Shown here piece after piece: positions 3,867 through 20,810 of a stretch of DNA of 56,316 bases (its first letter is position 1; the number at the start of each line of letters is the position of its first letter). The notes beneath the pieces were generated by a model, which did no database searches, was not told where the DNA came from, and was given only the letters and a program-made list of their open reading frames with translations. The stretch is taken from the NCBI GenBank assembly GCA_016219715.1, contig JACRKX010000008.1, positions 1 through 56,316 of the forward strand. The letters run 5' to 3'. Both the position numbers and the translations under genes were made by a program. The stretch comes from Actinomycetota bacterium (GTDB lineage Bacteria > Actinomycetota > Thermoleophilia > Solirubrobacterales > JACPNS01).

Positions 3867-3899
3867 TCAATTCGAACATCCGCCGCTAGGATTTCCCGC

Positions 3900-3988
3900 G
3901 GAGAGGTGCCGGAGCGGTTGAACGGGGCAGTCTCGAAAACTGTTAACGGGCGTAAGTTCGTTCGAGGGTTCGAATCCCTCCCTCTCCG
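3900..3988 (+). tRNA. tRNA-Ser(CGA)
   Basis: GGAGAGG/CCTCTCC acceptor stem; anticodon arm GCAGT-CT-CGA-AA-ACTGT; long variable arm; GGTTCGAATCC T-arm; CCA not encoded. Confidence 0.97.
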
Positions 3989-4268
3989 TTCTGTGTCGCT
4001 GTCTTGCCGTCGCAACCAGCAGCTCGTCGGTCATATTCGCACCAGGTCCCCTGGCTCGGTCTCAACCGGTTTGGATTGCTCGAAGAAGATGTTGCGGATC
4101 TACCTGTCGCTGAGGCGAGGTGGGGCATCTCACTGGTTAGTTAGTGGCGAACCGCTTTGAAACCGCCATAGCTGGCGCTCAGCGCGCGCTGGACCCGGAG
4201 ACGAGGGGCTCTACTGCGGGCCATCACAACAACGCACTGGCTATTCGCCGTAGTTCGTCGTCCGTAGA

Positions 4269-4721
4269 CTAGGACGACTGTCGGGCGACCAGTGCTTCGA
4301 ATACGCGCGAGGTCGCCTGCTCCATGGATTCGTGTTCCCAGATGCGGACGACGACCCACCCGGCCTCACCAAGCAGGCGATCAGTCTGATGATCTCGCTC
4401 ACGGTTACGAGCAATCTTCGATAGCCAGTAAGCAGCGTTCGTCTTCGGAATTGAGCCATGTTCGGGGCATCCGTGCCAGAAACAACCGTCGAGAAAGATC
4501 GCTACGCGAGGGCGGGTGAAAACAACGTCGGGGCGGATCGGCCGTCTTCCGGGCACTGGAATCGGTAAATCGACTCGAAATCGGAGTCCGCTCCGATGAA
4601 GGCTCGACCTCAATCGAAGTTCTGGACCAGTGTCGCGGCGCCGATTGGCCGACATGATGCGTCGGCGCGCCGTCTCGACTCCAGGCCATGGCTTGCGAGT
4701 TTCAAGCGCGGGTTTTGTCAT
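4269..4721 (-). CDS. vsr: Very short patch repair endonuclease
   Basis: IMSANRRRDTGPE, RPDVVF, FLDGCFWHGCPEH, YW..KI.RN.ERD, GW.VVRIWEHE. Confidence 0.95.
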   Translation of the reverse strand: MTKPALETRKPWPGVETARRRIMSANRRRDTGPELRLRSSLHRSGLRFRVDLPIPVPGRRPIRPDVVFTRPRVAIFLDGCFWHGCPEHGSIPKTNAAYWLSKIARNRERDHQTDRLLGEAGWVVVRIWEHESMEQATSRVFEALVARQSS

Positions 4722-4730
4722 GGATCGAGC

Positions 4731-5174
4731 CTAGCCACCCGGCCCGAACTCGCGCGCCTCGGTAACGTCGCTCCTACGCTTGCGCGATGTAGCGTCTCGA
4801 TATGCGGCACGGGCATCGTCGATGGCCTGACGCAACTCGACCACGACCACTGACCGTCCGTGTTCCACACGCTTGGAAAGCTCGCTAAGCCTAATAGCGA
4901 GACCGTGGCGTTCGATTCCGGTGGTCTCGATCACGATCCAAAGCCGGCGCGGCGGCTTTAACAGGAACCTCTGCAGCGGACCACGCAGGTCTCGCCATGC
5001 GGCTTTTCCACGTTTCGGTCCCGCAGCCTCCCGCAGCCGGGCATACGCCATCAGCTCAACGGCATCGAGCTCTTCAAAACCCCGCTGCTGGCGAAGGGCA
5101 CCACCTTTTGCCCACGCCTGTCGCTGCGCCAACGTGGTCCCACATATCTCGCATAACTCGTCGGCGGTCAGCAC
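4731..5174 (-). CDS. Hypothetical protein with MerR-like N-terminal HTH (candidate regulator)
   Basis: MLTADELCEICGTTLAQRQAWAKGGAL resembles the MerR/Xis HTH pattern; divergent from the MTase and co-oriented with vsr. Confidence 0.6.
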   Translation of the reverse strand: MLTADELCEICGTTLAQRQAWAKGGALRQQRGFEELDAVELMAYARLREAAGPKRGKAAWRDLRGPLQRFLLKPPRRLWIVIETTGIERHGLAIRLSELSKRVEHGRSVVVVELRQAIDDARAAYRDATSRKRRSDVTEAREFGPGG

Positions 5175-5250
5175 TTGAGTCCATCGATCCGTCCGGGGTT
5201 TGCCATAGCTTATTGTGGCTAATACTGCCAGGATTCACGTATAGGATTCC

Positions 5251-6606
5251 ATGCAAAATCACGACCCAGAGAACTTCGATGCGATCACGCTACCCGACAG
5301 ACCGGAGGCAACCGATAGACCGCTGCGTGCACTGGACCTGTTCGCTGGAGCTGGTGGTCTAAGCCGAGGTTTCGAATGGGCGGGTGCCGGGGATGTCGTA
5401 GGTGCCGTTGAAATCGATGAGTCCGCGGCCGAAACATTCCGCGCCAACCACCCCGGTGCGAGGGTATGGACCGAAGACATCCGCACAGTAGACCCTCTCG
5501 CCGTCGAGCAAGAACTTGGGCCAATTGACGTGGTGCTCGGCGGGCCTATGTGCCAGGGCGTTTCTCAACGTGGCCCACGTGATCCACGCGATGAGCGCAA
5601 CTTCGCGTTCTGGGCCTTCGCGGACTACGTGCGCAAGCTCAAGCCTCAGTTCTTCTTGATGGAAAACGTACCCGCAGTCGCGTCGGACGTGCATAATCGA
5701 CGCCTAGCTATCGCTGTGTTTGAGGAGCTCGAGTCGCTCGGGTACCACCTATCTGCTGAGGTCGTCTGCGCCGCTTGGTTCGGTGTCCCTCAGCTGCGCT
5801 ATAGGCTAGTGGTGCTCGGCTCACTGGACGGGCAACCGGCGTTTCCCGCATGTGTGGCCGCGGGGATTGAGGGCCACATGAGTGAACATGATTTCGTCCG
5901 CGTAGGCGACGCGATCGGAGACCTGCCACGAGTGGCCTCGGGTGGGGGCCTCGATGACCGACCAATGCCTCGCAATCCCCGGTCCCTCTCGCCATATGCC
6001 GCGATGCTCCGTGGCGATGCCGAGCGCCTCTACAACCACTGGTCGGCCGACACGGCGCCGGTCAACCTGGATCGAATTCGACATGTCCCGGAAGGAGGGA
6101 ACTGGCATGACATCCCGCTTGAGTTGCTGCCTCCACGCTTCCGCGAGGTGCGGCTGTCTGACCACACGACAACATACCGCCGACTCGATCGCAAGCACCC
6201 GGCTCATGTGATCACCTGCCTCTGCGGGAACGTCACGGCTGGAGCATTCACGCATCCGACACAGCATCGTGCGATTACCGTGCGCGAGGCTGCGAGGCTG
6301 CAGGGTTTCCCGGATGTACACCGTTTCGTCGGGCCCCGCTCAAGCCAATATCGACAGGTCGGGAACGCTGTACCAGCGCTCATGGCTCGTCGGCTGGCGG
6401 CAGCGCTTGTCGGCCGCGAGGAAAACATGGCGTGGGACAGGAGCGCAGCGCAGACCGACATCGGCTGGACAGGCCGCGTCACGCTCGACGTGCTGAAGCG
6501 CTATCCCGACCGACGACTTCCGTTCACGCTCGCACCGCGCTACAAGGCACTGTTCGGCGCTCGCGTCCACCGTCGTCGCCAGGACCTCGAACCGGCGGCA
6601 GCGTAA
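5251..6606 (+). CDS. dcm: DNA (cytosine-5)-methyltransferase
   Basis: Motif I LDLFAGAGG; IV GGPMCQGVS; VI MENV; VIII GVPQLRYR; IX REAARLQGFPD; X YRQVGNAVP. Confidence 0.95.
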   Translation: MQNHDPENFDAITLPDRPEATDRPLRALDLFAGAGGLSRGFEWAGAGDVVGAVEIDESAAETFRANHPGARVWTEDIRTVDPLAVEQELGPIDVVLGGPMCQGVSQRGPRDPRDERNFAFWAFADYVRKLKPQFFLMENVPAVASDVHNRRLAIAVFEELESLGYHLSAEVVCAAWFGVPQLRYRLVVLGSLDGQPAFPACVAAGIEGHMSEHDFVRVGDAIGDLPRVASGGGLDDRPMPRNPRSLSPYAAMLRGDAERLYNHWSADTAPVNLDRIRHVPEGGNWHDIPLELLPPRFREVRLSDHTTTYRRLDRKHPAHVITCLCGNVTAGAFTHPTQHRAITVREAARLQGFPDVHRFVGPRSSQYRQVGNAVPALMARRLAAALVGREENMAWDRSAAQTDIGWTGRVTLDVLKRYPDRRLPFTLAPRYKALFGARVHRRRQDLEPAAA

Positions 6607-6609
6607 CTC

Positions 6610-7875
6610 CTACTGCCGAATCAGCTCACACTCCTCGATGAACCGGGCGAGATCCTCTGTGAGGTGGGTTGGACGCACTTGGGCCGTCCAAGTACGGCAA
6701 CCGGTGGCGGAGCGGCCCAGGTACCGCGACGAATAAGCACCATCGCCCGCATAGACGAGGAAGGCACGGTCGGTATCTAACGAGGCCGCGTGAACGAGCA
6801 TCTGGTATAGGTCGGGCCGGCCTTCCTTCTTTGGACGCTGGGTTGCAGCCTTTTCATTGTCGGAGAGCTCCCCGAGAGCGGCTGTCAGGCTCTTGTACTT
6901 GACGTCTCCAGCGGCACGAACGACACCCTCACGGTGCACGACGATGTCCGGATTTGTACGTGACGCATCGCTGCCCCCCGTGAACATCCGACGGCCGTAA
7001 CTCTCTCCGCGATCGACTTCATGCGACTTCAGAAGTTCGCGGAGGGTTTCGCGGACCGCCTGTTCGAAGAGCGTCTCGAGGTCAAGAAACCATGCCCGCG
7101 GAACGTCGCTGTGCCCCGGAAGGTTCGGCTCAAAGCCGCGGTGAAGGAGGGCGACGGCTGCAAGACGCGCTAGGTCAACATCGTCCGAGAGCATGGACGA
7201 GTCGCGCTCGATGTCGTCCCCAAGCGACAGAAACGTGGCTGCGGAGGATGTCACAAACGCCTGGTCGCGAACCTCAGATAGTGCTCCCGCGAGCCAGCGC
7301 GCGTCGTAGACCGTGCTCGGGTCGAGTCGTAGCACCCGCGCAGCTCGATCCAGTTCGTCAAGTCCAGCCAGAACCAGTCGGTCGAGCGGCTCGTCACGCA
7401 CAACCGCACCTTCACGATAGGCGAAGATGCCGAGGCGCCCAGCGGCATGCAGACGCATTGTGGCTGGCATGTCGAGCCTACCTGCCAGCACCGACCCCGA
7501 AGCCCGTCGGTATCGGTAGCGGGCTACACGTCGATCAGAAACATACCGACCGGCGGCGCGTGTGAACTCGGTGAGTAGGTGCCGAGATACGACGTCGAAC
7601 TCAGTGGCGGGCGACTCCGCTTTCTCGATGCGGAGTTCGGCTCCGGTTGCCGCACCAATGAGCGACAGCAGCGTCCCGGGAACCTTCTCGCGTACCTGGA
7701 TTTCTATCCCGCCGACCCGTGCGCGGCCTACGTATTTGTGACCTACGATCTCGAACCGATCGGTGCCGGCCCGGCGATAGGATACGTACCCCGCATCACT
7801 GAGGCGCCAAAATCCCTCAGCGGCCTCGATCGCCTGCCACTCCTTTACATCGAGCTGGCGTCGATGCCGCTCCAT
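6610..7875 (-). CDS. mcrC: McrC-like PD-(D/E)xK nuclease subunit
   Basis: YVG..I..K N-terminus; DLETLFE; NPDIVV...GDVKYK; DLYQM; directly downstream of the McrB-like gene. Confidence 0.85.
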   Translation of the reverse strand: MERHRRQLDVKEWQAIEAAEGFWRLSDAGYVSYRRAGTDRFEIVGHKYVGRARVGGIEIQVREKVPGTLLSLIGAATGAELRIEKAESPATEFDVVSRHLLTEFTRAAGRYVSDRRVARYRYRRASGSVLAGRLDMPATMRLHAAGRLGIFAYREGAVVRDEPLDRLVLAGLDELDRAARVLRLDPSTVYDARWLAGALSEVRDQAFVTSSAATFLSLGDDIERDSSMLSDDVDLARLAAVALLHRGFEPNLPGHSDVPRAWFLDLETLFEQAVRETLRELLKSHEVDRGESYGRRMFTGGSDASRTNPDIVVHREGVVRAAGDVKYKSLTAALGELSDNEKAATQRPKKEGRPDLYQMLVHAASLDTDRAFLVYAGDGAYSSRYLGRSATGCRTWTAQVRPTHLTEDLARFIEECELIRQ

Positions 7876-7894: not shown

Positions 7895-9526
7895 TCAGTT
7901 ACCGGAAGTCACCCCGCTTGACTGTGCCGAACCGTCGGTAACGTCAATCGCGGTGCGGCTTGGTTCCTCGTCATCGTCCAGCCGTGGAACCTCAGCCACA
8001 GGCTTCACGACCGTCACCTCTGGCGAGATGCGCCACGGGTAGTGCGCGACGATTGTGTCGTACAGCTCATGACGCGGGGTGTGTGGACGGACCAGCATTC
8101 GCTTGAGCTCTTGGTGCCAAAGCTCGTATAGATCGGGCTCGTCCTCGACGGACGCGAAGATTGCGTGCCCGAACGGCATCGTCTCACCGAACCTATCCGA
8201 CCCGGCAACCTCACGGCACGCATCGAACATTTCTACAAGCTTGGTCGTTACCTGTCCGTCGACGCCGTTCGCGCCAAGTATCTCCTCAAGCAGCTGAATG
8301 CTGGGAGGGAAGTCGAGAATCCGCATGCGTCGAATGAGCGCTGCGTCGATGTTGACCGCCGATCGGTCTGTTGGGTTGTACGTCGCAAGGATCGCGACGT
8401 TCGGGGCAATCCGGGTCCGCTCGTCGCGACGATACATCGTCGTAAACAAGTCCATTTCATCGCGGTATTCGACATACGTTACGAGTTCTCCCAGGACACG
8501 AGGAAGGTCGGCGCGGGTCAACTCCTCGATGAGAAGCACATATTGGCTGCCAGGATCCTCGATGGCTCGCTGATTGAGTTCGAGGAAAGCACCAGCAACC
8601 ACTTCGACCTCCATCCCCTTGCCATAACGCGGGCCCTCCATGAACTCTTCGTACGTGTATCCCGGGCTGAACTGAACCTCACGGAGGCATCGGTCGGACG
8701 CGTACGCGCGAGCAGCGATGCGGGCGGCGTGGCTCTTGCTGGTACCGGGCACCCCCGCCAGCGCAACGATCGCTCGCCCTCCGTGCTTGGTGAGCGCCTC
8801 AAGTATCCGATCTACGTGGGAGGCGAGATGCAACGGAAGTTCCTCGACCTGCCGTCTCAACTCTTCAGCTTTCTCGGCGCCTGGCGGCATCAATGTTGAC
8901 GAAAGGTTCGCGGGGTCCCATTCGTCGCCACCGAACGGCTCAAGCTGGAGCGACGGTGAGGATGAGACCTTCTCCCATTCGTCAGAGGACAGGCCGAACT
9001 GTTGCCGAGCGATTTCCATGAGATCCGGCCATCCCAATTCGGGATCAAGAGACTGGTCCCGGAGCGCAAGCGCCGCTAGGGCGTCTCGCGGCGGCCAAGC
9101 ATATGGCGCACCACCGAGCGTTTCCGTCACTCGGTCTACAGCGTTGCCAAGCATAGGGTTGCGCCAATCCTCGCCACGAAACATGAAGCGCCCCGGTGAC
9201 GATGGTCCGGCGTAGTCGAGAAAGCTCCCACGATAAGCATCGTTCCTCAGCCACGCGGGCCGACCCTGGCTTCCCCTGAGAGCGATCGTACCGCTGTATT
9301 TCTTCTCAGGAACTCCCTCGGGAGTCGGCAGAAGAGTGAAGAGTTCCTCGACGACGTTCTTGACTGCCGGTGTATCGACTTCAGTCTGCACGCCGTCGCG
9401 GTGGATCGCCTTGAATGCAAGGAACGTCCGAAGCATCGAGTCGGACCGCGTCTTGAGCTTGGTGCCCACCACCGCTCTCAAGGCTGCCTCGACGGCTCGG
9501 TGCCCAATGCGCCTATGGGTGTCCAT
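7895..9526 (-). CDS. mcrB: McrB-like AAA+ GTPase with unrecognised N-terminal domain (start ATG 9526 or GTG 9535)
   Basis: GVPGTSKS; VQFSPGYTYEEFMEG; LLIEELTRA..VLGEL; ATYNPTDRS..IDAALIRR. Confidence 0.88.
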   Translation of the reverse strand: MDTHRRIGHRAVEAALRAVVGTKLKTRSDSMLRTFLAFKAIHRDGVQTEVDTPAVKNVVEELFTLLPTPEGVPEKKYSGTIALRGSQGRPAWLRNDAYRGSFLDYAGPSSPGRFMFRGEDWRNPMLGNAVDRVTETLGGAPYAWPPRDALAALALRDQSLDPELGWPDLMEIARQQFGLSSDEWEKVSSSPSLQLEPFGGDEWDPANLSSTLMPPGAEKAEELRRQVEELPLHLASHVDRILEALTKHGGRAIVALAGVPGTSKSHAARIAARAYASDRCLREVQFSPGYTYEEFMEGPRYGKGMEVEVVAGAFLELNQRAIEDPGSQYVLLIEELTRADLPRVLGELVTYVEYRDEMDLFTTMYRRDERTRIAPNVAILATYNPTDRSAVNIDAALIRRMRILDFPPSIQLLEEILGANGVDGQVTTKLVEMFDACREVAGSDRFGETMPFGHAIFASVEDEPDLYELWHQELKRMLVRPHTPRHELYDTIVAHYPWRISPEVTVVKPVAEVPRLDDDEEPSRTAIDVTDGSAQSSGVTSGN

Positions 9527-9687: not shown

Positions 9688-9959
9688 TTCAGTCAGGGTC
9701 TTCCTGCTGCGAATACAAACGCATGAGTGGTCTGGGTCCGCAAGCGTGAGACAAAAAAGTCTCGAAATCTCGTCACAAAACCGCAGTCAGCGCGAATACA
9801 TAAGTGCAGACATATTTCAGATGAGTCTGTGTTCCAGGGAATGTGAGCAGACGTCACACTCGGCAATCCCTGGCGCATTCGTTGACTGGCGGGGGAGAAA
9901 GCCCTAACAAGGCATTTGTCGTTCAGGCACCACCGCACGAAATCTCAGTATCGAAGGAG

Positions 9960-10370
9960 ATGGTGACACTGGATCGGTTCGCAGACAACCTACTTACGTC
10001 GTCCCGAGCGGTCGTCGCACTAGTTGTGGCAACGATCGCGCTCTTGGTCGGCGTCTTGATCGCGCAGCCAGCCTCGGCGCACGTCCAAGACACGCGCTAT
10101 TACTGCACGAATACCGAGGTCGGCGGCGACACCTGGTGCAACGGTGGTAGCCCAGCCAACTTCCACGAGAACCGCGCCTACACCTACGGGGGTCACTGCG
10201 TGGGCGTTCGGTTCATTCGCGTCTCGGACAACGCCGTTCTGTATCGCTACCTGGCGACCAACTGGGTGTCGTCGGGTTATCGCGATGCCAGCTACCGCTG
10301 GACACAGGCCGCGAATTGCTCGAACATCCCTTGGACCATCAGCGCAGCCGCTGACTACCACTACCCCTAA
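9960..10370 (+). CDS. Small secreted protein with 4 Cys (start approximate)
   Basis: AAGGAG at 9954; hydrophobic stretch ending AQPASA; ~96-aa mature region rich in Tyr/Trp/Asn. Confidence 0.7.
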   Translation: MVTLDRFADNLLTSSRAVVALVVATIALLVGVLIAQPASAHVQDTRYYCTNTEVGGDTWCNGGSPANFHENRAYTYGGHCVGVRFIRVSDNAVLYRYLATNWVSSGYRDASYRWTQAANCSNIPWTISAAADYHYP

Positions 10371-10388
10371 AAAGGAGATCAGTTCTAC

Positions 10389-11093
10389 ATGCTTATGAAT
10401 CGTGCGAAAGGACTTACGCGCGGCGGTGTCGCGGTACTCATCGTGCTGGTCGGCCTGGCCGTGGCGGCTGTTGTTGCTGTCGCAGGACCATCAATCGTCT
10501 CGGGCCCCGAGGGGTCCAAGGTGGTAGAAGGCAGTTCGCAATCGACGCCACCGTCGATGACCAAGCCTCAGTCCGAAATGGCCGCGCAGGCTCTCGAACA
10601 GGCGCGGGCGAAGTTCAGTTCACTTCGCGCCGCCGAATCCGCCGCAGACAAACTGCCCGAAGCAATCAATCGCTCTTCGATCGCCAAGAACTTTGCCGGG
10701 CCAAACGCGGCCAGGAAAGTCGGCACTTCGAAATCCGGTATCGACTTCTTCGCCATTCCAGTCGTGCCTGGAGCAGAGTTGCAGTTTGATGACGCTGGCG
10801 TCTGTGTCTTAGAGGAAAACGGCGCGGGATCGTGCCAGTCGATCGATGAGATCGAGCAAGGACAGTCCCTTGTCTACGCGGACCACCTCCCGGAGTTGCC
10901 GAGCGGATACGCGCGGCTGCGAGGCTTCATGCCCGACGGAGTTGATGAAGTCAAGATCGCGACTAGCGACGGAAAGTCGTTGACAGTTCCGGTGAACGGC
11001 AACTTGTTCGTTTACGAAGCCGACTTCAGCCCCGTCAGCATCAGCTGGTCACTCAACGGCAATCAGCACTCGCGGGCGGTTCCGGGCGCGTAG
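10389..11093 (+). CDS. Membrane-anchored/secreted hypothetical protein
   Basis: AAGGAG RBS right after the upstream stop; N-terminal TM; C-x8-C; G..PDGV..V...V.V.GN.F motif. Confidence 0.75.
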   Translation: MLMNRAKGLTRGGVAVLIVLVGLAVAAVVAVAGPSIVSGPEGSKVVEGSSQSTPPSMTKPQSEMAAQALEQARAKFSSLRAAESAADKLPEAINRSSIAKNFAGPNAARKVGTSKSGIDFFAIPVVPGAELQFDDAGVCVLEENGAGSCQSIDEIEQGQSLVYADHLPELPSGYARLRGFMPDGVDEVKIATSDGKSLTVPVNGNLFVYEADFSPVSISWSLNGNQHSRAVPGA

Positions 11094-11116
11094 TAGAAAG
11101 GACGTTCGATCACTAA

Positions 11117-11172
11117 ACAACACGTCGTGCGAGGCTTATGGGGATCGCTTTCAGCTCAGCACGACGTGTTGT
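11117..11172. repeat. 14-bp perfect inverted repeat (hairpin) after the two-gene operon
   Basis: ACAACACGTCGTGC (11117-11130) and GCACGACGTGTTGT (11159-11172). Confidence 0.8.
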
Positions 11173-11315
11173 GGTCGATGATCGGCTCAGACTCATCTGC
11201 CGATCTCGTCCTGAGTTGATTCACATGCCTGAACTCGACGCCGTAGAGTCCAAGCCGGTGTCTGTTCGGCTTGCCGCACTTCATAATCGTCGCGGCTTGA
11301 CCGACAAGGACGACG

Positions 11316-12443
11316 ATGAGATTTCGTCGCCACGCAGCGAGGGTCACTGCTTCACTCGCCATTTCGGTAACCGGACCGTTGCTCGCTCCGACGGTTTCGA
11401 TTGCCGTTGAAACTGTGGCCGCAGTTGAACCGACCCAGGCCGCGCTTGGTGGCAAGTACGTGTATTACCGCCTCCCGGTTCCGTACGGCAGTAGAGATTC
11501 TGGCTCTCCGCGCCTTCTGCGAGTCGATCGCGTTTCTCACCTCACACGAACCATTTACACGCCTCCGCGCGGCTGGGCCATCACAGACTTCCGCGAACGG
11601 AATGGACTGTTATCGGTTCTAATTGATCCCGAGCCGTCAGACGACGTAGGCACCGCACGGCTGCTGACGATGAACGCCGACGGCAGGCGAAGGAGAACGA
11701 TCGATTCCGTCACCGACTCCGGAAAACGCCTGCCGTGCTTCAAGTCATTGAGTCTCGTCGCGATCACGGAAAGCAAACGCACCATCGCCAACCAGGTCGC
11801 GTTTGAACGCTCCGCCGGAGGTCAATGCAACCCGCCGCGCACCGTCGTTCGGACGATCTCCAGTGACCGACGCGGTTCGCGAGTCAGGTTGTCCAGCGCC
11901 TCGCTTGCTCCGCGGCGCCGAGAATTGCGCTCATTCCCATCTCGGGAGTACTTATTCGCTGTGTCACAGATAGTCATGGACGCGACTGACCGTTGGCTCG
12001 TTCGATTCCGGTGGGATTCACAATCGATCGCACTGACCGACCGGATCACCGGTGCGCGCACCGTTCGCCACGTCGGCTTGATGCCGGACGTCTTGCAGGT
12101 TTGGGAGGACGGAGCCGTTCTCGCTGGTTACCACGACTACTCCGAGATACACCCGAATGACCTCCTCTGGATCACTCCATCGCAGAGCGCGCCTGTCGAA
12201 CTCTTGCGCGACGGAGCCAGTTCACGGTTTCAACGATGTGGCAACGCGATCATCAACGTCTATTGGCCTCAGTCGCCACCTGGCGTCGAGCAGCCTCGAT
12301 TGGCCGTTCATGACCGCAGCGGCGCATTGGTGCGCGATGTCGCCGAATCGCTTCCGGCCAGCGCAACGCTTGAGGACTGCGACGGAGAAACAGCGCTTTT
12401 CTCGACCGCCTCGCCGCCACGACTGTTAGCGGTTGACTTGTGA
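11316..12443 (+). CDS. Hypothetical exported protein, possibly beta-rich/propeller
   Basis: 375-aa ORF; basic N-terminus then hydrophobic stretch; beta-strand-like segments; no family recognised. Confidence 0.55.
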   Translation: MRFRRHAARVTASLAISVTGPLLAPTVSIAVETVAAVEPTQAALGGKYVYYRLPVPYGSRDSGSPRLLRVDRVSHLTRTIYTPPRGWAITDFRERNGLLSVLIDPEPSDDVGTARLLTMNADGRRRRTIDSVTDSGKRLPCFKSLSLVAITESKRTIANQVAFERSAGGQCNPPRTVVRTISSDRRGSRVRLSSASLAPRRRELRSFPSREYLFAVSQIVMDATDRWLVRFRWDSQSIALTDRITGARTVRHVGLMPDVLQVWEDGAVLAGYHDYSEIHPNDLLWITPSQSAPVELLRDGASSRFQRCGNAIINVYWPQSPPGVEQPRLAVHDRSGALVRDVAESLPASATLEDCDGETALFSTASPPRLLAVDL

Positions 12444-12470
12444 CCGTCGGCGTCGCATTGCCGAGCCTGC

Positions 12471-14021
12471 TCAGCGCAACGGCACGCGCATAGTCGTCTT
12501 CTTGGCCGCAGCGCCGGTGGTGGTGCTCCGCAAGACCAACGGCGCCGTCCGCTTCTTGAAGCGCCGAAGCGCCTTCAGCCCACTCGATGTCAGACGCAGC
12601 GTCGCCTTGCCGACACCGGCCGCGCCGAGCGCTCCCTGGGCGGAGCCGAGCTTGGACCGGCCGAGCGACAGCGAAAACTGCACCGCGCAAGCCTGCGAAC
12701 ACGCGAACTCGATGTTCAGGCGTTTCGACCGCCGCAGCGCCGCCAATGATCTGGGCGTTGATGGGGCAGCCAGTAGCTGCGGCTTCGCCGAAACAACGTC
12801 GTCGTCGAGGATCTGCACCGTCGTGATCGGCGACAGGACCAGCGCTCCACCGGTCGGGCTCGTCAGCTCAACGGCGAATACCTGTGCGCCATCGATCGCG
12901 CTGTCCTGGATCAGCGGGACAACGATCTCCTTGGTGCGTTCGCCGGCGACGAATTCGAGCGTGCCCTGGACTGGTACGTAATCTTGCCCGGCTATCGCTG
13001 TGCGATCAATCGTTTGGTACCGCACGCTCGCCGGAAGCAGCGTGTCACCTGTCCGCTCGACCCGCACCGCCACCGACGAGCCCTCGGCGCCAACCTGCAA
13101 GCCAGTCGGCAGAAAGCCGCCGCCCCGGGCAATCGTCAGGCCGGCGAGCCGACCGGCGCCGATGGCTCCGAGCGACGCCGAGGCTGCGCCGGTCGACAGG
13201 TTGAGCGTGTGCAGGTCCGACCCCAACGCCCCGGACGGGGCCACCGCTGCCCACCCGACCCCAGTGCCGCCAGACGAACCTGGAGCGATGTCAAGAGCGA
13301 CGAAGCTGGAGGCGTCAATGCCCAGTGAACCAATCGTGAACAGCAGTCCGCCGTTCGGCGAGGGAGCACCGTTGACCCCGCCTTGACGTACGAGAATGTC
13401 CTGTGCCGAATCGACCCCGAACAGCGTCGTCCCCGTCGCTGGATCGTTGTCGTTGCGGTCGTACGCGATATCGACAACGTTGGGACCGTCGCCGGCATTG
13501 ACATCGCCGGCATCGAAGGCCAAGTTCGTGTCGGGGTCCACCACGGACGTACCAAGGTTGGTGTCGACCGGGTCGAGCGTGATCGGGTTGAATCTGAGAT
13601 TCTGATCTCCGGTGTTGACCAATCGCAGCCGGTCGACCGCCGGATTGAAGTCAACGCCGATCGACCCAGCCGGACTGAACACCCCGGTATCGATGTCGCT
13701 GGCCTGGGTCGCGGCGCCGTCGAACGCGGCTATCGCGAGCACTCGGCCGACGCTGGTGTACGCGTAGATCTGGCCGGTCGCCGGACGCTGGTCGATCGAG
13801 CGGACCAGTTCGCCGGTAAGCATGCCCGTCAACGGCGAGCTGGTGATCGTGGAACTCGGCGCTGACGTGTCGAACGTCACGACCTTTGGGTCGACACCGG
13901 CCGTGACGCCGACGGCGATCTCGCCTGCCGACGCAGTCGACGCCCCGACCGCGAATACGGCCGCTACCGCAATCGCGCACACTCCAGACTTCTGCCGAAT
14001 ACCCATACGATCCCGCTCCAA
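12471..14021 (-). CDS. Secreted DUF4394 + Calx-beta domain protein with basic C-terminal domain
   Basis: IDQRPATGQIY and GVDFNPAVDRLRLV (DUF4394); V.Y.T.D.TA.AG.DY....GTLEF.AGE..K.I...I.DDD (Calx-beta). Confidence 0.85.
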   Translation of the reverse strand: MERDRMGIRQKSGVCAIAVAAVFAVGASTASAGEIAVGVTAGVDPKVVTFDTSAPSSTITSSPLTGMLTGELVRSIDQRPATGQIYAYTSVGRVLAIAAFDGAATQASDIDTGVFSPAGSIGVDFNPAVDRLRLVNTGDQNLRFNPITLDPVDTNLGTSVVDPDTNLAFDAGDVNAGDGPNVVDIAYDRNDNDPATGTTLFGVDSAQDILVRQGGVNGAPSPNGGLLFTIGSLGIDASSFVALDIAPGSSGGTGVGWAAVAPSGALGSDLHTLNLSTGAASASLGAIGAGRLAGLTIARGGGFLPTGLQVGAEGSSVAVRVERTGDTLLPASVRYQTIDRTAIAGQDYVPVQGTLEFVAGERTKEIVVPLIQDSAIDGAQVFAVELTSPTGGALVLSPITTVQILDDDVVSAKPQLLAAPSTPRSLAALRRSKRLNIEFACSQACAVQFSLSLGRSKLGSAQGALGAAGVGKATLRLTSSGLKALRRFKKRTAPLVLRSTTTGAAAKKTTMRVPLR

Positions 14022-14100
14022 CCCTTAGCCTCCGGCCGCGATCGTCGCGAGCCCATGTGGCTGCGATAACGCGATCCCGCGTACGCGGCGTCATCACAAA

Positions 14101-14126
14101 CTAATGGATTTCGCTAATGGATTTCG
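14101..14126. repeat. Perfect 13-nt tandem direct repeat in a divergent promoter region
   Basis: CTAATGGATTTCG twice. Confidence 0.85.
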
Positions 14127-14230
14127 TCGCATGCTTGCCCGCCAGCAAGCAAGCGGACCCAGCTCGGCGAGATCGCGTGCTCGAGCGCCGCAGATCCTGC
14201 GATCCGCGGGACGTGCGGTAACTTGAGGAA

Positions 14231-15262
14231 ATGCCGCCCCGTATCGTTCGCATCTGGATGGTGGTTGCACTCGCGACTGTCGCGCTTGCCACCACGGCTT
14301 CCGGCGCGACGGCAGCGACCACCGTCGGCGGCAAGCTCGACTCCACACCGACCTCGTACGGCTGTGTGGGCTACGGCCCCGGCGTAGTCATGCCTGGGGT
14401 GACTATCGGTTGCACAATTCAGCAGACCGTCGCCGCACCCGCGTTCTCAGTCGGCTCAACGAGTCCAATCGCAACCGGTGGCGTCGTGACGCGATTCCAC
14501 ATCCTCACCGGCGCGTCCGGAGCCGGAACCAGCCGCGTGGTCGTCGCGCCACGAGTGCTCAACCCGGCACTGGACGTCGTGGCGACGGGAACTCCGCAGG
14601 ACATTCCGCTTGGCATCGCTGGTGTTCACTCCTTCGACACCCAGCTGCCCGTCACCAGTGGACAGCATCTCGCTATGCATCTCGAGTTCACGGCCGGTCC
14701 GCTCGCGGGATCCGAGACCGTCGGCATCAAATGGGTCTACGTGGCCCCAAGCGGAACCGCCGGTTCAACGGCCAAGAAGTCCGGCACTTTGCCGGGACCC
14801 ACCTCGCTGGCTACGCCCGACAGCACGTCGGCCAACGGCGAAGCGATGGTCGCCTACGACATCGAACCCGACGTCGACGGCGACGGGCTTGGCGACGAGA
14901 CACAGGACACTGCGCCACCCACACTCAAGCAGAGCGTCCGAGCGCGACAAAACGTCGTCAGAGGACGTGGTATCTCGCTGCTCATAACTAGCAGCGAGAC
15001 AGGCACGGTCACGATCGGCGGCTTGGTCAAGGTGGGCGGCGAGTTGGGCTCGCTGACGCTCGCTTCGCGCACAATCGCGGTGGATGCCGGGGTCGCGAAA
15101 CGCGTCCGGCTACCGATACCTGCGCGGCGTCTCAAGAAGATCAAAGCAGCGCTTAAGTCCGGCAAGTCGGTGTCGGTGCGCACGCAAGTGTTCGCGACCA
15201 ACGTGATCGGCCGGTCATCGCAGACGCAATCCAAGACGGTGCGCGCCGCGAAGATCCGATAG
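14231..15262 (+). CDS. Secreted protein with DxDxDG Ca-binding linker and basic C-terminal domain
   Basis: Signal peptide; IEPDVDGDGLGDETQD; K/R-rich C-terminus; TAACTT 6 nt before the ATG. Confidence 0.8.
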   Translation: MPPRIVRIWMVVALATVALATTASGATAATTVGGKLDSTPTSYGCVGYGPGVVMPGVTIGCTIQQTVAAPAFSVGSTSPIATGGVVTRFHILTGASGAGTSRVVVAPRVLNPALDVVATGTPQDIPLGIAGVHSFDTQLPVTSGQHLAMHLEFTAGPLAGSETVGIKWVYVAPSGTAGSTAKKSGTLPGPTSLATPDSTSANGEAMVAYDIEPDVDGDGLGDETQDTAPPTLKQSVRARQNVVRGRGISLLITSSETGTVTIGGLVKVGGELGSLTLASRTIAVDAGVAKRVRLPIPARRLKKIKAALKSGKSVSVRTQVFATNVIGRSSQTQSKTVRAAKIR

Positions 15263-15513
15263 CGGCCGACAGAGGGCCTCGTCGCCGACATCTTTGAAGC
15301 GGTGGTACGGGTTTCGCCGCGCGCTCGAAACCATGAAGGAATCGGCCTCGCCAGGCTTGACCGTTTCGGCCGCATTCGGGTTTCGCATACGCGAACCTGA
15401 AACCGATCGGCGGAGGCAGCAACATCGCCGGTACATACACCTATACCATCCCCTATTTCGAGGTATAGTATTGGGTTGTTGAATTACACACACTTCGCAC
15501 CCAGGGGAGCCGC

Positions 15514-18387
15514 ATGCGATTCGCACGATGCTTACTCGCGATTGCCGCGCTGGCCATTTGCCAGCTGGCCATCGCTTCCACGGCCGCCGGTTACACGCCG
15601 GGCACCGTCAAGAACTACAAGACCGCCGTGCTGGCGGTGAAGTATCAGGACGAGACTCCAACCGTCACGTTGGAAGACATCCGCCAGCGTGTGTTCACGG
15701 GCAGCGACTCGGCTCACGAATTCCTGATCGCGTCGTCACAGGGTCGCGTCGGCCTCGAAGGGGACGTGTTCGGTTGGTTCACTGTGCCTGAGAACACACC
15801 TCCCGACTGCGGAGCGAGTCTCGACTTTCTGGACATCAGCGCGGCGGCCGAAAGTCAGGCTCCGTTCGCACCGCACAATCTGAATCTCCACGAATACGAG
15901 CGGATAGTTTTCGCGGCACCGGGATGTGGTGGTGCGCTCAACCTAGCTAGTGGCACCTCCGAAGGCGGCGGCCGACGAGCGTGGATCGTCGGCGACTATG
16001 TCGGAACCACGACCTCGGTCTACACGCACGAGATCGTTCATACCCTCCGGGCGGGCGGTCGCGGGATCGGACATGCCGGCGCAACCACATGCCGCGACGG
16101 GAACTTTCCGGTCGCCTACTCAACGAGTTGCCTCGACTGGGACGGAGCCGACCAGAACGATCTGATGGGATCGGGGTATCGCCTACAAAGCACTTTCATG
16201 CGCGTGGCGCTCGGATTCCTGAACTACAGCGACTCCACAACCGCCAACGGGTCCAACACGTTCGAGATCTACTCGACCGATCAACCTCCCGCTCCCGGTC
16301 GCATCTACAACCTGCGGGTCAAGCTGCGCGAGCCGAGGATCAGTGAACTGGGCAGCCCGTTTCCCAATGCGGCGACCGGTGGTGGACAGGCGTTTCTGAA
16401 CATCGACTATCCAGTCATCGACGGCCAGTTCGGCGGAGGTTTCAGCTGGATCGGACAGGCGCCGCTACGTCTCGCAAGAGAGATCGGACATGCGACGAAC
16501 AATGGCTCAGGCAACGGAGAACGAGCGCGGACGCTCCGCGTAGACACCGACCCGCACACTCGCTGGCAACTCGCTCAGGAGCAGTCGGCCGGCCTAGCAC
16601 CGACAAGCGACTACTTCTACACGCCAGCGCCCAATCCAAGCGTTCCTGACCAGTCGTTTGAGCCGCTCTCGATGGACACCGGCTTCTACGACCCCGACTC
16701 GAACGTGTTGCTTCGGGTGATCTCGGCAGATACGAGCAAGATCACGGTTGCCTATAGCGAAGGTCTGACGCCTAGCGAGCGCACTTCGCTCGAAGTCGTC
16801 GGCAAAACGCTAAAGGTCACCGCACAGGCCGGCTACGCGAACGACCTCCACATCCGCGCGGACGCCAAAGGCAACATCGTCGTACGCGAAGGCAACGCCG
16901 CTGTGCACAACGTGGCTGGATGCTCGACGCACAAAAACATCGGCTACTGCCCCGCTTCGCGCATAAGTCAACTGATCGTCGACACCGGCGATCGCCGCGA
17001 CTACGTCGACGTAAGCCTGTCGGGGGTGGCGGTGAACGTGCGCGGAGGCGACGGCAACGACGTGCTGGTCGGCGGTTCGGCAGTCGAGTCGATGCTCGGC
17101 GAGAACGGTGACGACCAGATTGTCTCTCGAGGCGGCAACGACAACATCGTCGGCGGCGCGGGAGCCGACCGCATCGAATCAGGCGACGGAGCCGACGTGA
17201 TCACCGGCCTCGACGGCACCGACCCGGATACCGTCTGGTGCGGCGCGGGGACGGACAAGTTCGAGATCGGAACGGGCGACATCCTCGGCACCAACCCCGC
17301 GCACGGCTGTGAGTCGAACACCGGCGCCGAGACCCGCATCCTCTCTGGCCCCCAGCCGACGGGATCGAGCACACCTACGTTCGAGTTCGTCGCGAACAAG
17401 TCGACTTCGACAACGTTCCAGTGCAATCTAAGCGCGTCGGGCGGCACGTGGTTCGGCTGCACCTCGCCCTACACGGTTTCACCGCCGTACGCGTCTGGCA
17501 ACCGGGCGTTCCGCGTCCGTTCGATCGTGTCGGGTGTAACGGACTCCTCGCCCGCGTCGAGCTCGTTCGCCGTGTCGTCTGCGGACACCAATCCCCCCGA
17601 CCTCTCGATCAGCTCACCGGGGGCCTTTGCTACGGGGACTCAGTCGACGCTCACCTACAGCATCGCCGACGCATCGGGACTCAGCGGCACGCCGCAATGC
17701 AGGATCAACGGCGGAACAGCGTTTAGCTGCAACAGCGGCTACCAACTCAGCACGCCAGCCGACGGAAGCTACGAAATCTCGGTTACCGCTACCGACACAG
17801 TCGGCAACTCCGTCACCGTGAGACGCGACTTCGTCGTGGACAACGTGACGCCGGCGATCACGATCGCCGGCCCGAACAACACGACGATCCACTCGTCCCG
17901 CTTCGATGTTGAGTTCGACGCGAACGACACGAACGGAATTGCCGAAACCGACTGCGCAGTCGACGGCGGGACCTACGAGCCCTGCTCGGCCGGCTGGACG
18001 TCGCCTGCCGCGCTTGGGAACGGCCAGCACTCCGTTTCCATTCGGGCGAAGGATAGAGCCGGCACCGTGGCCACGGCCGTTGCGACGTTCACGATCGATA
18101 CGGGTGGAGTGCAGACGAGCTTCAGTTCCGGCCCAGCCGATGGCTCGACAATTACGACGTCGTATACCACGTTCGGTGTGCTCGGAAACTCGCCGTACGA
18201 CTCGCAACGGCTCGAGTACCGGCTCGACAGCAACAACTGGCGTGAAATCACGGGTTCCCCCACCTTCACGGCAACCCTGAACCTCTACGGGCTGGCGGCC
18301 GGATCCCACACGATAGAGGTCCGCGCGATCGACGCATCGGAAACCGCCGACCCAACGCCAGCTACGCGAACGTTCAACGTGCAGTAG
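15514..18387 (+). CDS. Secreted metzincin (M11/M6-like) metallopeptidase with RTX Ca-binding repeats and Ig-like domains
   Basis: Signal peptide; HEIVH...GIGHA; DQNDLMG Met-turn; GGDGNDVLVGG-type nonapeptides; repeated C..DG/G.H...V.A.D Ig-like modules. Confidence 0.8.
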   Translation: MRFARCLLAIAALAICQLAIASTAAGYTPGTVKNYKTAVLAVKYQDETPTVTLEDIRQRVFTGSDSAHEFLIASSQGRVGLEGDVFGWFTVPENTPPDCGASLDFLDISAAAESQAPFAPHNLNLHEYERIVFAAPGCGGALNLASGTSEGGGRRAWIVGDYVGTTTSVYTHEIVHTLRAGGRGIGHAGATTCRDGNFPVAYSTSCLDWDGADQNDLMGSGYRLQSTFMRVALGFLNYSDSTTANGSNTFEIYSTDQPPAPGRIYNLRVKLREPRISELGSPFPNAATGGGQAFLNIDYPVIDGQFGGGFSWIGQAPLRLAREIGHATNNGSGNGERARTLRVDTDPHTRWQLAQEQSAGLAPTSDYFYTPAPNPSVPDQSFEPLSMDTGFYDPDSNVLLRVISADTSKITVAYSEGLTPSERTSLEVVGKTLKVTAQAGYANDLHIRADAKGNIVVREGNAAVHNVAGCSTHKNIGYCPASRISQLIVDTGDRRDYVDVSLSGVAVNVRGGDGNDVLVGGSAVESMLGENGDDQIVSRGGNDNIVGGAGADRIESGDGADVITGLDGTDPDTVWCGAGTDKFEIGTGDILGTNPAHGCESNTGAETRILSGPQPTGSSTPTFEFVANKSTSTTFQCNLSASGGTWFGCTSPYTVSPPYASGNRAFRVRSIVSGVTDSSPASSSFAVSSADTNPPDLSISSPGAFATGTQSTLTYSIADASGLSGTPQCRINGGTAFSCNSGYQLSTPADGSYEISVTATDTVGNSVTVRRDFVVDNVTPAITIAGPNNTTIHSSRFDVEFDANDTNGIAETDCAVDGGTYEPCSAGWTSPAALGNGQHSVSIRAKDRAGTVATAVATFTIDTGGVQTSFSSGPADGSTITTSYTTFGVLGNSPYDSQRLEYRLDSNNWREITGSPTFTATLNLYGLAAGSHTIEVRAIDASETADPTPATRTFNVQ

Positions 18388-20530: not shown

Positions 20531-20594
20531 CGTGCGGGATCCTTCCGCAAAAGAGCTTAGGGGCGCAAACGACGCACTAGCCTGTACACCTGCT

Positions 20595-20685
20595 GGAGAG
20601 GTGGCGGAGCTGGCTGAACGCGCACGCTTGGAAAGCGTGTAGGCGGTTTATAACCGTCTCGAGGGTTCGAATCCCTCCCTCTCCG
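20595..20685 (+). tRNA. tRNA-Ser(GGA)
   Basis: GGAGAGG/CCTCTCC acceptor; CACGC-TT-GGA-AA-GCGTG anticodon arm; long variable arm; T-arm. Confidence 0.97.
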
Positions 20686-20810
20686 TCGTCTGCTCGCTGC
20701 ACATTTCGTCATGCTCGGCGAGGCCGGATCGGTCACGCACAAAAGTGCGCTCCCTCACCGGACTCGCCTGCGCGTGGCGAACTGCTTGGATCAGACGCCT
20801 GAGAGGAGCT

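Follow-up and report, generated by a model that had tools for sequence, protein, structure and literature searches.

The McrB-like protein encoded in the 56,316-nucleotide stretch of DNA analysed here (hereafter, the window) carries an N-terminal domain of 214 residues that is real and probably an undescribed specificity domain, within a system of an already known type. By analogy with LlaJI, we consider it likely that the domain gives a LlaJI-like restriction-modification system its specificity and would bind a short DNA site only when the cytosine there is not methylated, since it stays beside its methyltransferase across genomes while the motor and nuclease change. The computed part of this explanation consists of the architecture, the gene context, the joint travel with the methyltransferase and the motor exchange. 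On a wider proposal our judgement leans slightly to the doubtful side: the domain might be a portable DNA-recognition cartridge, moving with a matching m5C or m4C methyltransferase onto four McrB motor lineages and a Menshen sensor, and so wiring one target site into unrelated defence machines.

Architecture of the McrB-like protein

A reverse-strand open reading frame (window 9526 to 7895) encodes 543 aa, and its translation contains all three peptides quoted in an earlier sequence-only reading of this DNA. The ATG at 9526 is consistent with seven relatives whose start or alignment falls no more than a few codons away, two of which (L002 and L003) have an additional domain further upstream of the mcrB start. 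Pfam AAA_5 covers residues 254-401 (E 4e-13), the NCBIfam McrB match spans residues 238-457, the alignment with E. coli McrB begins at residue 238 (E 2e-18), and Foldseek with the full-length model returned McrB structures as the top matches. The McrB-type AAA+ motor and a disordered C-terminal tail occupy 7895-8833 (reverse strand), where Walker A, Walker B and the NxxD signature are all present as variants (GVPGTSKS, IEE and NPTD, respectively). The first Walker B residue is E across the motor clade of the window and its sister clades, and the window Walker A reads GTSKS; judged from these motifs, the activity of the motor is uncertain in detail.

In both the full-length and the isolated models the folded N-terminal domain stops near residue 214 (8885-9526, reverse strand). 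It is followed by a linker (residues 215-231; 8834-8884, reverse strand), and residues 232-249 already form the first AAA+ helix, as seen in the full-length model and the E. coli McrB alignment. The N-terminal domain of about 250 aa proposed from the sequence is thus real but shorter, the remainder being linker and first AAA+ helix.

The isolated region folds with high confidence (AF2, pLDDT 95.7, pTM 0.92) into a mostly helical model with one hairpin. Its predicted core (residues 24-126; 9149-9457, reverse strand) resembles a distorted winged helix, with helices 26-44 and 52-62, an inserted hairpin at 78-94 and helix 97-106. The last lies within the predicted recognition helix (residues 95-108; 9203-9244, reverse strand), a role suggested by the column table of a 55-row domain alignment, in which conserved polar residues concentrate on helix 97-106 and G79, W92 and R99 are invariant.

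Domain family and comparison with described families

A single-sequence search matched residues 1-235 to 25 other proteins at 50-76% identity (26 including the query), and a profile of eight domain sequences, run against 1.84 billion representatives, retrieved 43 clusters at E ≤ 0.001, to which later searches added further members. These relatives, the profile clusters and the confident fold indicate that the domain is more than a chance occurrence. The domain has two subfamilies that share about 21-30% identity and differ in helix 97-106 (NDxYRGSFxDYAGP in subfamily 1, SGRKTVWNxxTR in subfamily 2), and named members come from Solirubrobacterales, Rathayibacter, Microbacterium, Streptomyces, Rhodococcus and Thermoanaerobaculia. 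The N-terminus of a McrB on a Mycobacterium paragordonae plasmid, adjoining an amino-methyltransferase (L028:7254-7850), has the C-terminal scaffold motifs of the domain; the two align at 37% over 59 columns with a probability of 4%, and the family may be wider than the members given here. Some members of about 800 aa have a second domain of about 260 aa ahead of the 214-residue one (L002:7182-7990, L003:7191-7990; also P0019, P0023, P0029, P0075, P0078 and P0079). This second domain has no Pfam or NCBIfam match, resembles at about 30% the N-termini of plasmid 'AAA family ATPases' in 36 records, and may be a second specificity module.

Residues 1-249 had no match in Pfam, PADLOC or NCBIfam. 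At E ≤ 1 the domain had no Pfam hit, DUF3578/SRA, EVE, YTH and CSD/OB included, and at E ≤ 1e-5 the signatures of these described McrB readers were absent from the N-terminal region in 34 relatives. Sequence-library and structure searches gave no confident match to the domain, and neither the B3 fold nor a beta-rich base-flipping fold of the DUF3578/SRA, EVE, YTH or CSD/OB type is among the fold-search matches listed; the helical build with a single hairpin also argues against a beta pseudo-barrel of the B3 kind. The fold search did reveal a weak resemblance to winged-helix proteins, so the fold may not be wholly new. Comparison with the BspD6I/AlwI-like module of sister motors (hhalign, A4 vs. 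A6) gave a probability of 0.1% and E 0.48, short of homology. No description of the domain appeared among the entries listed in searches of open full-text literature, outside which most subscription papers lie. The sequence-only reading had seen a candidate new recognition module, unmatched by eye to described McrB N-terminal domains; fold and structure searches of the N-terminal region likewise gave no confident match to any of these, and the candidacy gains from the fact that in five different defence proteins the domain takes the position that sets specificity. That it belongs to an already described domain family is improbable.

Genes of the cassette

Immediately downstream of mcrB lies a McrC-like PD-(D/E)xK nuclease of 421 aa (6610-7875, reverse strand; Pfam McrBC, E 7e-10), whose translation contains a PD...DVKYK motif that is presumably catalytic, as in E. 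coli McrC. Convergent with it, a C5-cytosine methyltransferase of 451 aa (5251-6606, forward strand; Pfam DNA_methylase, E 6e-56; PADLOC MTase_II, E 7e-92) is the predicted cognate protector. Beyond it are a 147-aa ORF divergent from the methyltransferase (4731-5174, reverse strand) and a Vsr T:G mismatch endonuclease (4269-4721, reverse strand; Pfam Vsr, E 1e-17; TIGR00632 above cut-off). The 147-aa ORF shows a MerR-like HTH by eye but no confident family match in Pfam, PADLOC or NCBIfam, and has relatives at 54-61% in L002, L003 and L009. Between it and the methyltransferase, TAGCTTA and CGTCCG elements are conserved in four loci (window 4731-5250), and the ORF is a possible controller.

Pairing of the domain with a methyltransferase

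A methyltransferase adjoins the cassette in all 11 loci that hold both the domain and flanking DNA, the window included (nine C5 and two amino-type); these loci include close kin, so the independent evidence amounts to four gene combinations rather than 11. The window and seven close loci have one C5 enzyme each, those of the seven being 74-81% identical to that of the window, as compared to two in the sister clades, and vsr is present in all except L008, where the contig breaks off within the methyltransferase. The locus L031 (genome G1090) is more divergent: a subfamily-2 domain 28% identical to that of the window stands beside a C5-methyltransferase 66% identical and a vsr gene, while the AAA region aligns at 24% over 118 residues only (E 0.003) and the downstream gene cannot be aligned with the window McrC. 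Conversely, L012 and L017 have AAA regions 47-48% identical to that of the window but a different N-terminal module, with no match to the domain, and a pair of methyltransferases at 31-35%. Within the methyltransferase, the segment preceding motif IX belongs to the target-recognition region; it is nearly identical in the window, L001 and L031 and different in L012 and L017. In one sample of 400 class genomes, the domain search and the methyltransferase search (E ≤ 1e-70) each matched only G1090, at one shared locus.

A second pairing involves amino-methyltransferases (PF01555 rather than PF00145). Those adjoining L030 (subfamily 1, motor 52% identical) and L029 (subfamily 2, NxD motor) are 66% identical to each other, neither locus has a Vsr match, and the TSTPY motif IV suggests N4-cytosine enzymes. 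Counting against joint travel of domain and methyltransferase, the amino-type family, at 51-56% identity, lacked the domain in two of three matches among 391 genomes, and genome G638 gave no PF00145 match. Frameshifts affect both the methyltransferase of L030 and the mcrB of L031, and a neighbouring McrB in L030 looks broken too, which, judged from the assembled sequence, suggests assembly errors. These combinations show the putative reader and its predicted writer being exchanged jointly between motors. Neither site-avoidance analysis nor promoter alignments yielded a target site. A related amino-methyltransferase is accompanied by three ParB-like ORFs (by eye) in place of McrBC in L033:6403-11089.

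The sequence-only reading had also allowed for recognition of modified bases. The domain would then resemble Type IV McrBC in reading m5C, hm5C, m4C or m6A, with the methyltransferase a defence-island neighbour, but the adjacent C5-methyltransferase and Vsr, neither of which that reading had used, disfavour this part of the claim: a methyltransferase is present at every flanked locus and its C5 family follows the domain across the motor swap. SRA, EVE and YTH readers are, moreover, beta-rich, unlike the mostly helical domain model. The passages of PMC11037411 on wH fusions give no adjacent methyltransferase for 87% of them, and we regard modified-base reading as unlikely. Less credible still is a role in which the domain does not itself read DNA sequence and serves as adaptor or sensor towards a protein, for instance a phage factor or the methyltransferase. 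Travel with the methyltransferase and the lack of a confident DNA-binding fold match are compatible with such a role, but the domain pairs with methyltransferases of two families, bears its conserved polar residues on helix 97-106 and is also present on NsnA.

Distribution over motors and machines

Most of the 34 profile hits scanned carry AAA_5, and one (P0045) carries DUF262. When 52 motor domains were placed in a quick tree (five of 57 rows were dropped), the domain fell on four clades, one of them with the NxD signature. Subfamily 1 corresponds to a single clade with support 99, which lies within a set of motors bearing other modules; these modules weakly resemble the BspD6I/AlwI recognition region (E 0.014). 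The deep joins are long-branch, and no order of events is drawn from them. Most of the sister cassettes L012-L017 (e.g., L012:7150-7974) and L018-L025 have two C5-methyltransferases, and the weakly BspD6I/AlwI-like module is a separate gene in the former and fused to the motor in the latter. An Arthrobacter plasmid encodes an MTaX1 protein with two methyltransferases on one side and a bare McrB-like motor on the other (L032:5210-6010).

P0045, a Menshen NsnA (E 5e-112), has the domain in its N-terminal sensor slot. The family could then be one of the Menshen NsnA-N sensor families already described (PS-wHTH1-8 or helical), with the same mechanism but no novelty of family; the account in PMC12065111 of eight new wHTH families in that position agrees with this. 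P0045, however, comes from Logan only, whereas the search described in PMC12065111 was of NCBI nr; the NsnA fusion is a single case among the hits scanned; and the passages likening PS-wHTH1-4 to BpuJI and FokI name proteins absent from the 50 fold matches listed. PS-wHTH1-8 were defined in the NsnA-N slot and compared here by description only, so the domain family may be among them, although we give this little credence.

Proposed mechanism and comparison with known systems

In the LlaJI-like reading that we prefer, as extrapolated from McrBC and LlaJI, helix 97-106 of the distorted winged-helix core would contact the target site, the McrB hexamer would hydrolyse NTP and translocate, and McrC would cut incoming unmethylated DNA. 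Host DNA would be shielded by the methyltransferase, and T:G mismatches arising from m5C deamination would be repaired by Vsr. The presence of one methyltransferase, not two, weakly suggests a palindromic site.

LlaJI (Lactococcus lactis; LlaJI.R1 of Helicobacter pylori) shares with the window a McrB-like subunit with a fused N-terminal domain, a McrC-like nuclease and a C5-methyltransferase. According to the parts of PMC1459862 available, LlaJI restricts unmethylated DNA and R1.LlaJI alone sets this specificity. LlaJI proper differs in its two C5-methyltransferases, asymmetric site and B3 domain, as opposed to one convergent C5 enzyme, Vsr and a mostly helical domain in the window; an accompanying methyltransferase, as in LlaJI-type McrBC, is found in the window and 10 other loci. 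The three-gene, non-canonical LlaI and BsuMI systems are likewise methyltransferase-accompanied McrBC, with site specificity as reported in the accessible portion of a preprint (bioRxiv 10.64898/2026.08.31.748284), where their motors accept several nucleotides and LlaI.R1 domain 1 is an ERCC4-like, seven-stranded sheet; their specificity subunit is a separate protein, whereas the window domain is fused and has a different predicted topology.

Canonical McrBC (E. coli with DUF3578, T. gammatolerans with YTH) has an AAA+ motor and McrC homologous to those of the window, but reads modified bases with an N-terminal domain for which the searches gave no sequence or fold match to ours. EVE domains also occur on McrB. 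The modules described for McrB in the passages of PMC7680126 are DUF3578, YTH and B3. As for Menshen, wHTH is the commonest fold in the NsnA-N slot according to PMC12065111, whereas nearly all members of the window family that were scanned sit on McrB-type motors. The relevant passages of Bell et al. (PMC11090510) link the NxxD and NxD McrB branches to methyltransferases, deferring them to a later paper, and name no such domain; the window-family domain sits on both. PMC11037411 mentions, in the part available, NTD-wH-NTPase fusions that were left untested.

Few specificity domains are on record for methyltransferase-protected McrBC in the portions of the literature consulted (B3 in LlaJI.R1 and the ERCC4-like LlaI.R1), and the window domain adds one that has no structural match. 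The subfamily of the domain and the class of the methyltransferase form a natural two-by-two cross, which predicts a single motif recognised by either subfamily and protected by either mark, and joint exchange of reader and writer between motors bears on how restriction systems change specificity.

Distribution and mobility of the cassette

The domain was found in none of 14 same-genus and none of 400 phylum genomes sampled, and in one of 400 order and one of 400 class genomes, completeness varying throughout. A tRNA-Ser(CGA) gene (3899-3989, forward strand; ARAGORN, Rfam) flanks the cassette and is its likely insertion site, and past it, on the cassette side, GC drops from about 0.68 to 0.58-0.64. 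The few positive genomes, the GC lower than in the flank and the tRNA-Ser neighbour indicate a cassette that is rare and likely mobile; the ecological reach of so rare a family is small. No integrase was seen by eye among the listed ORFs. Two tRNA-Ser genes (3899-3989 and 20594-20687) have a 28-nt 3' end in common and flank a stretch of about 16 kb, mostly of lower GC. Upstream of mcrB, several ORFs have a secreted look (window 9843-18387), and one of them, a 957-aa protein, has, by eye, a HEIVH zinc-peptidase-like motif.
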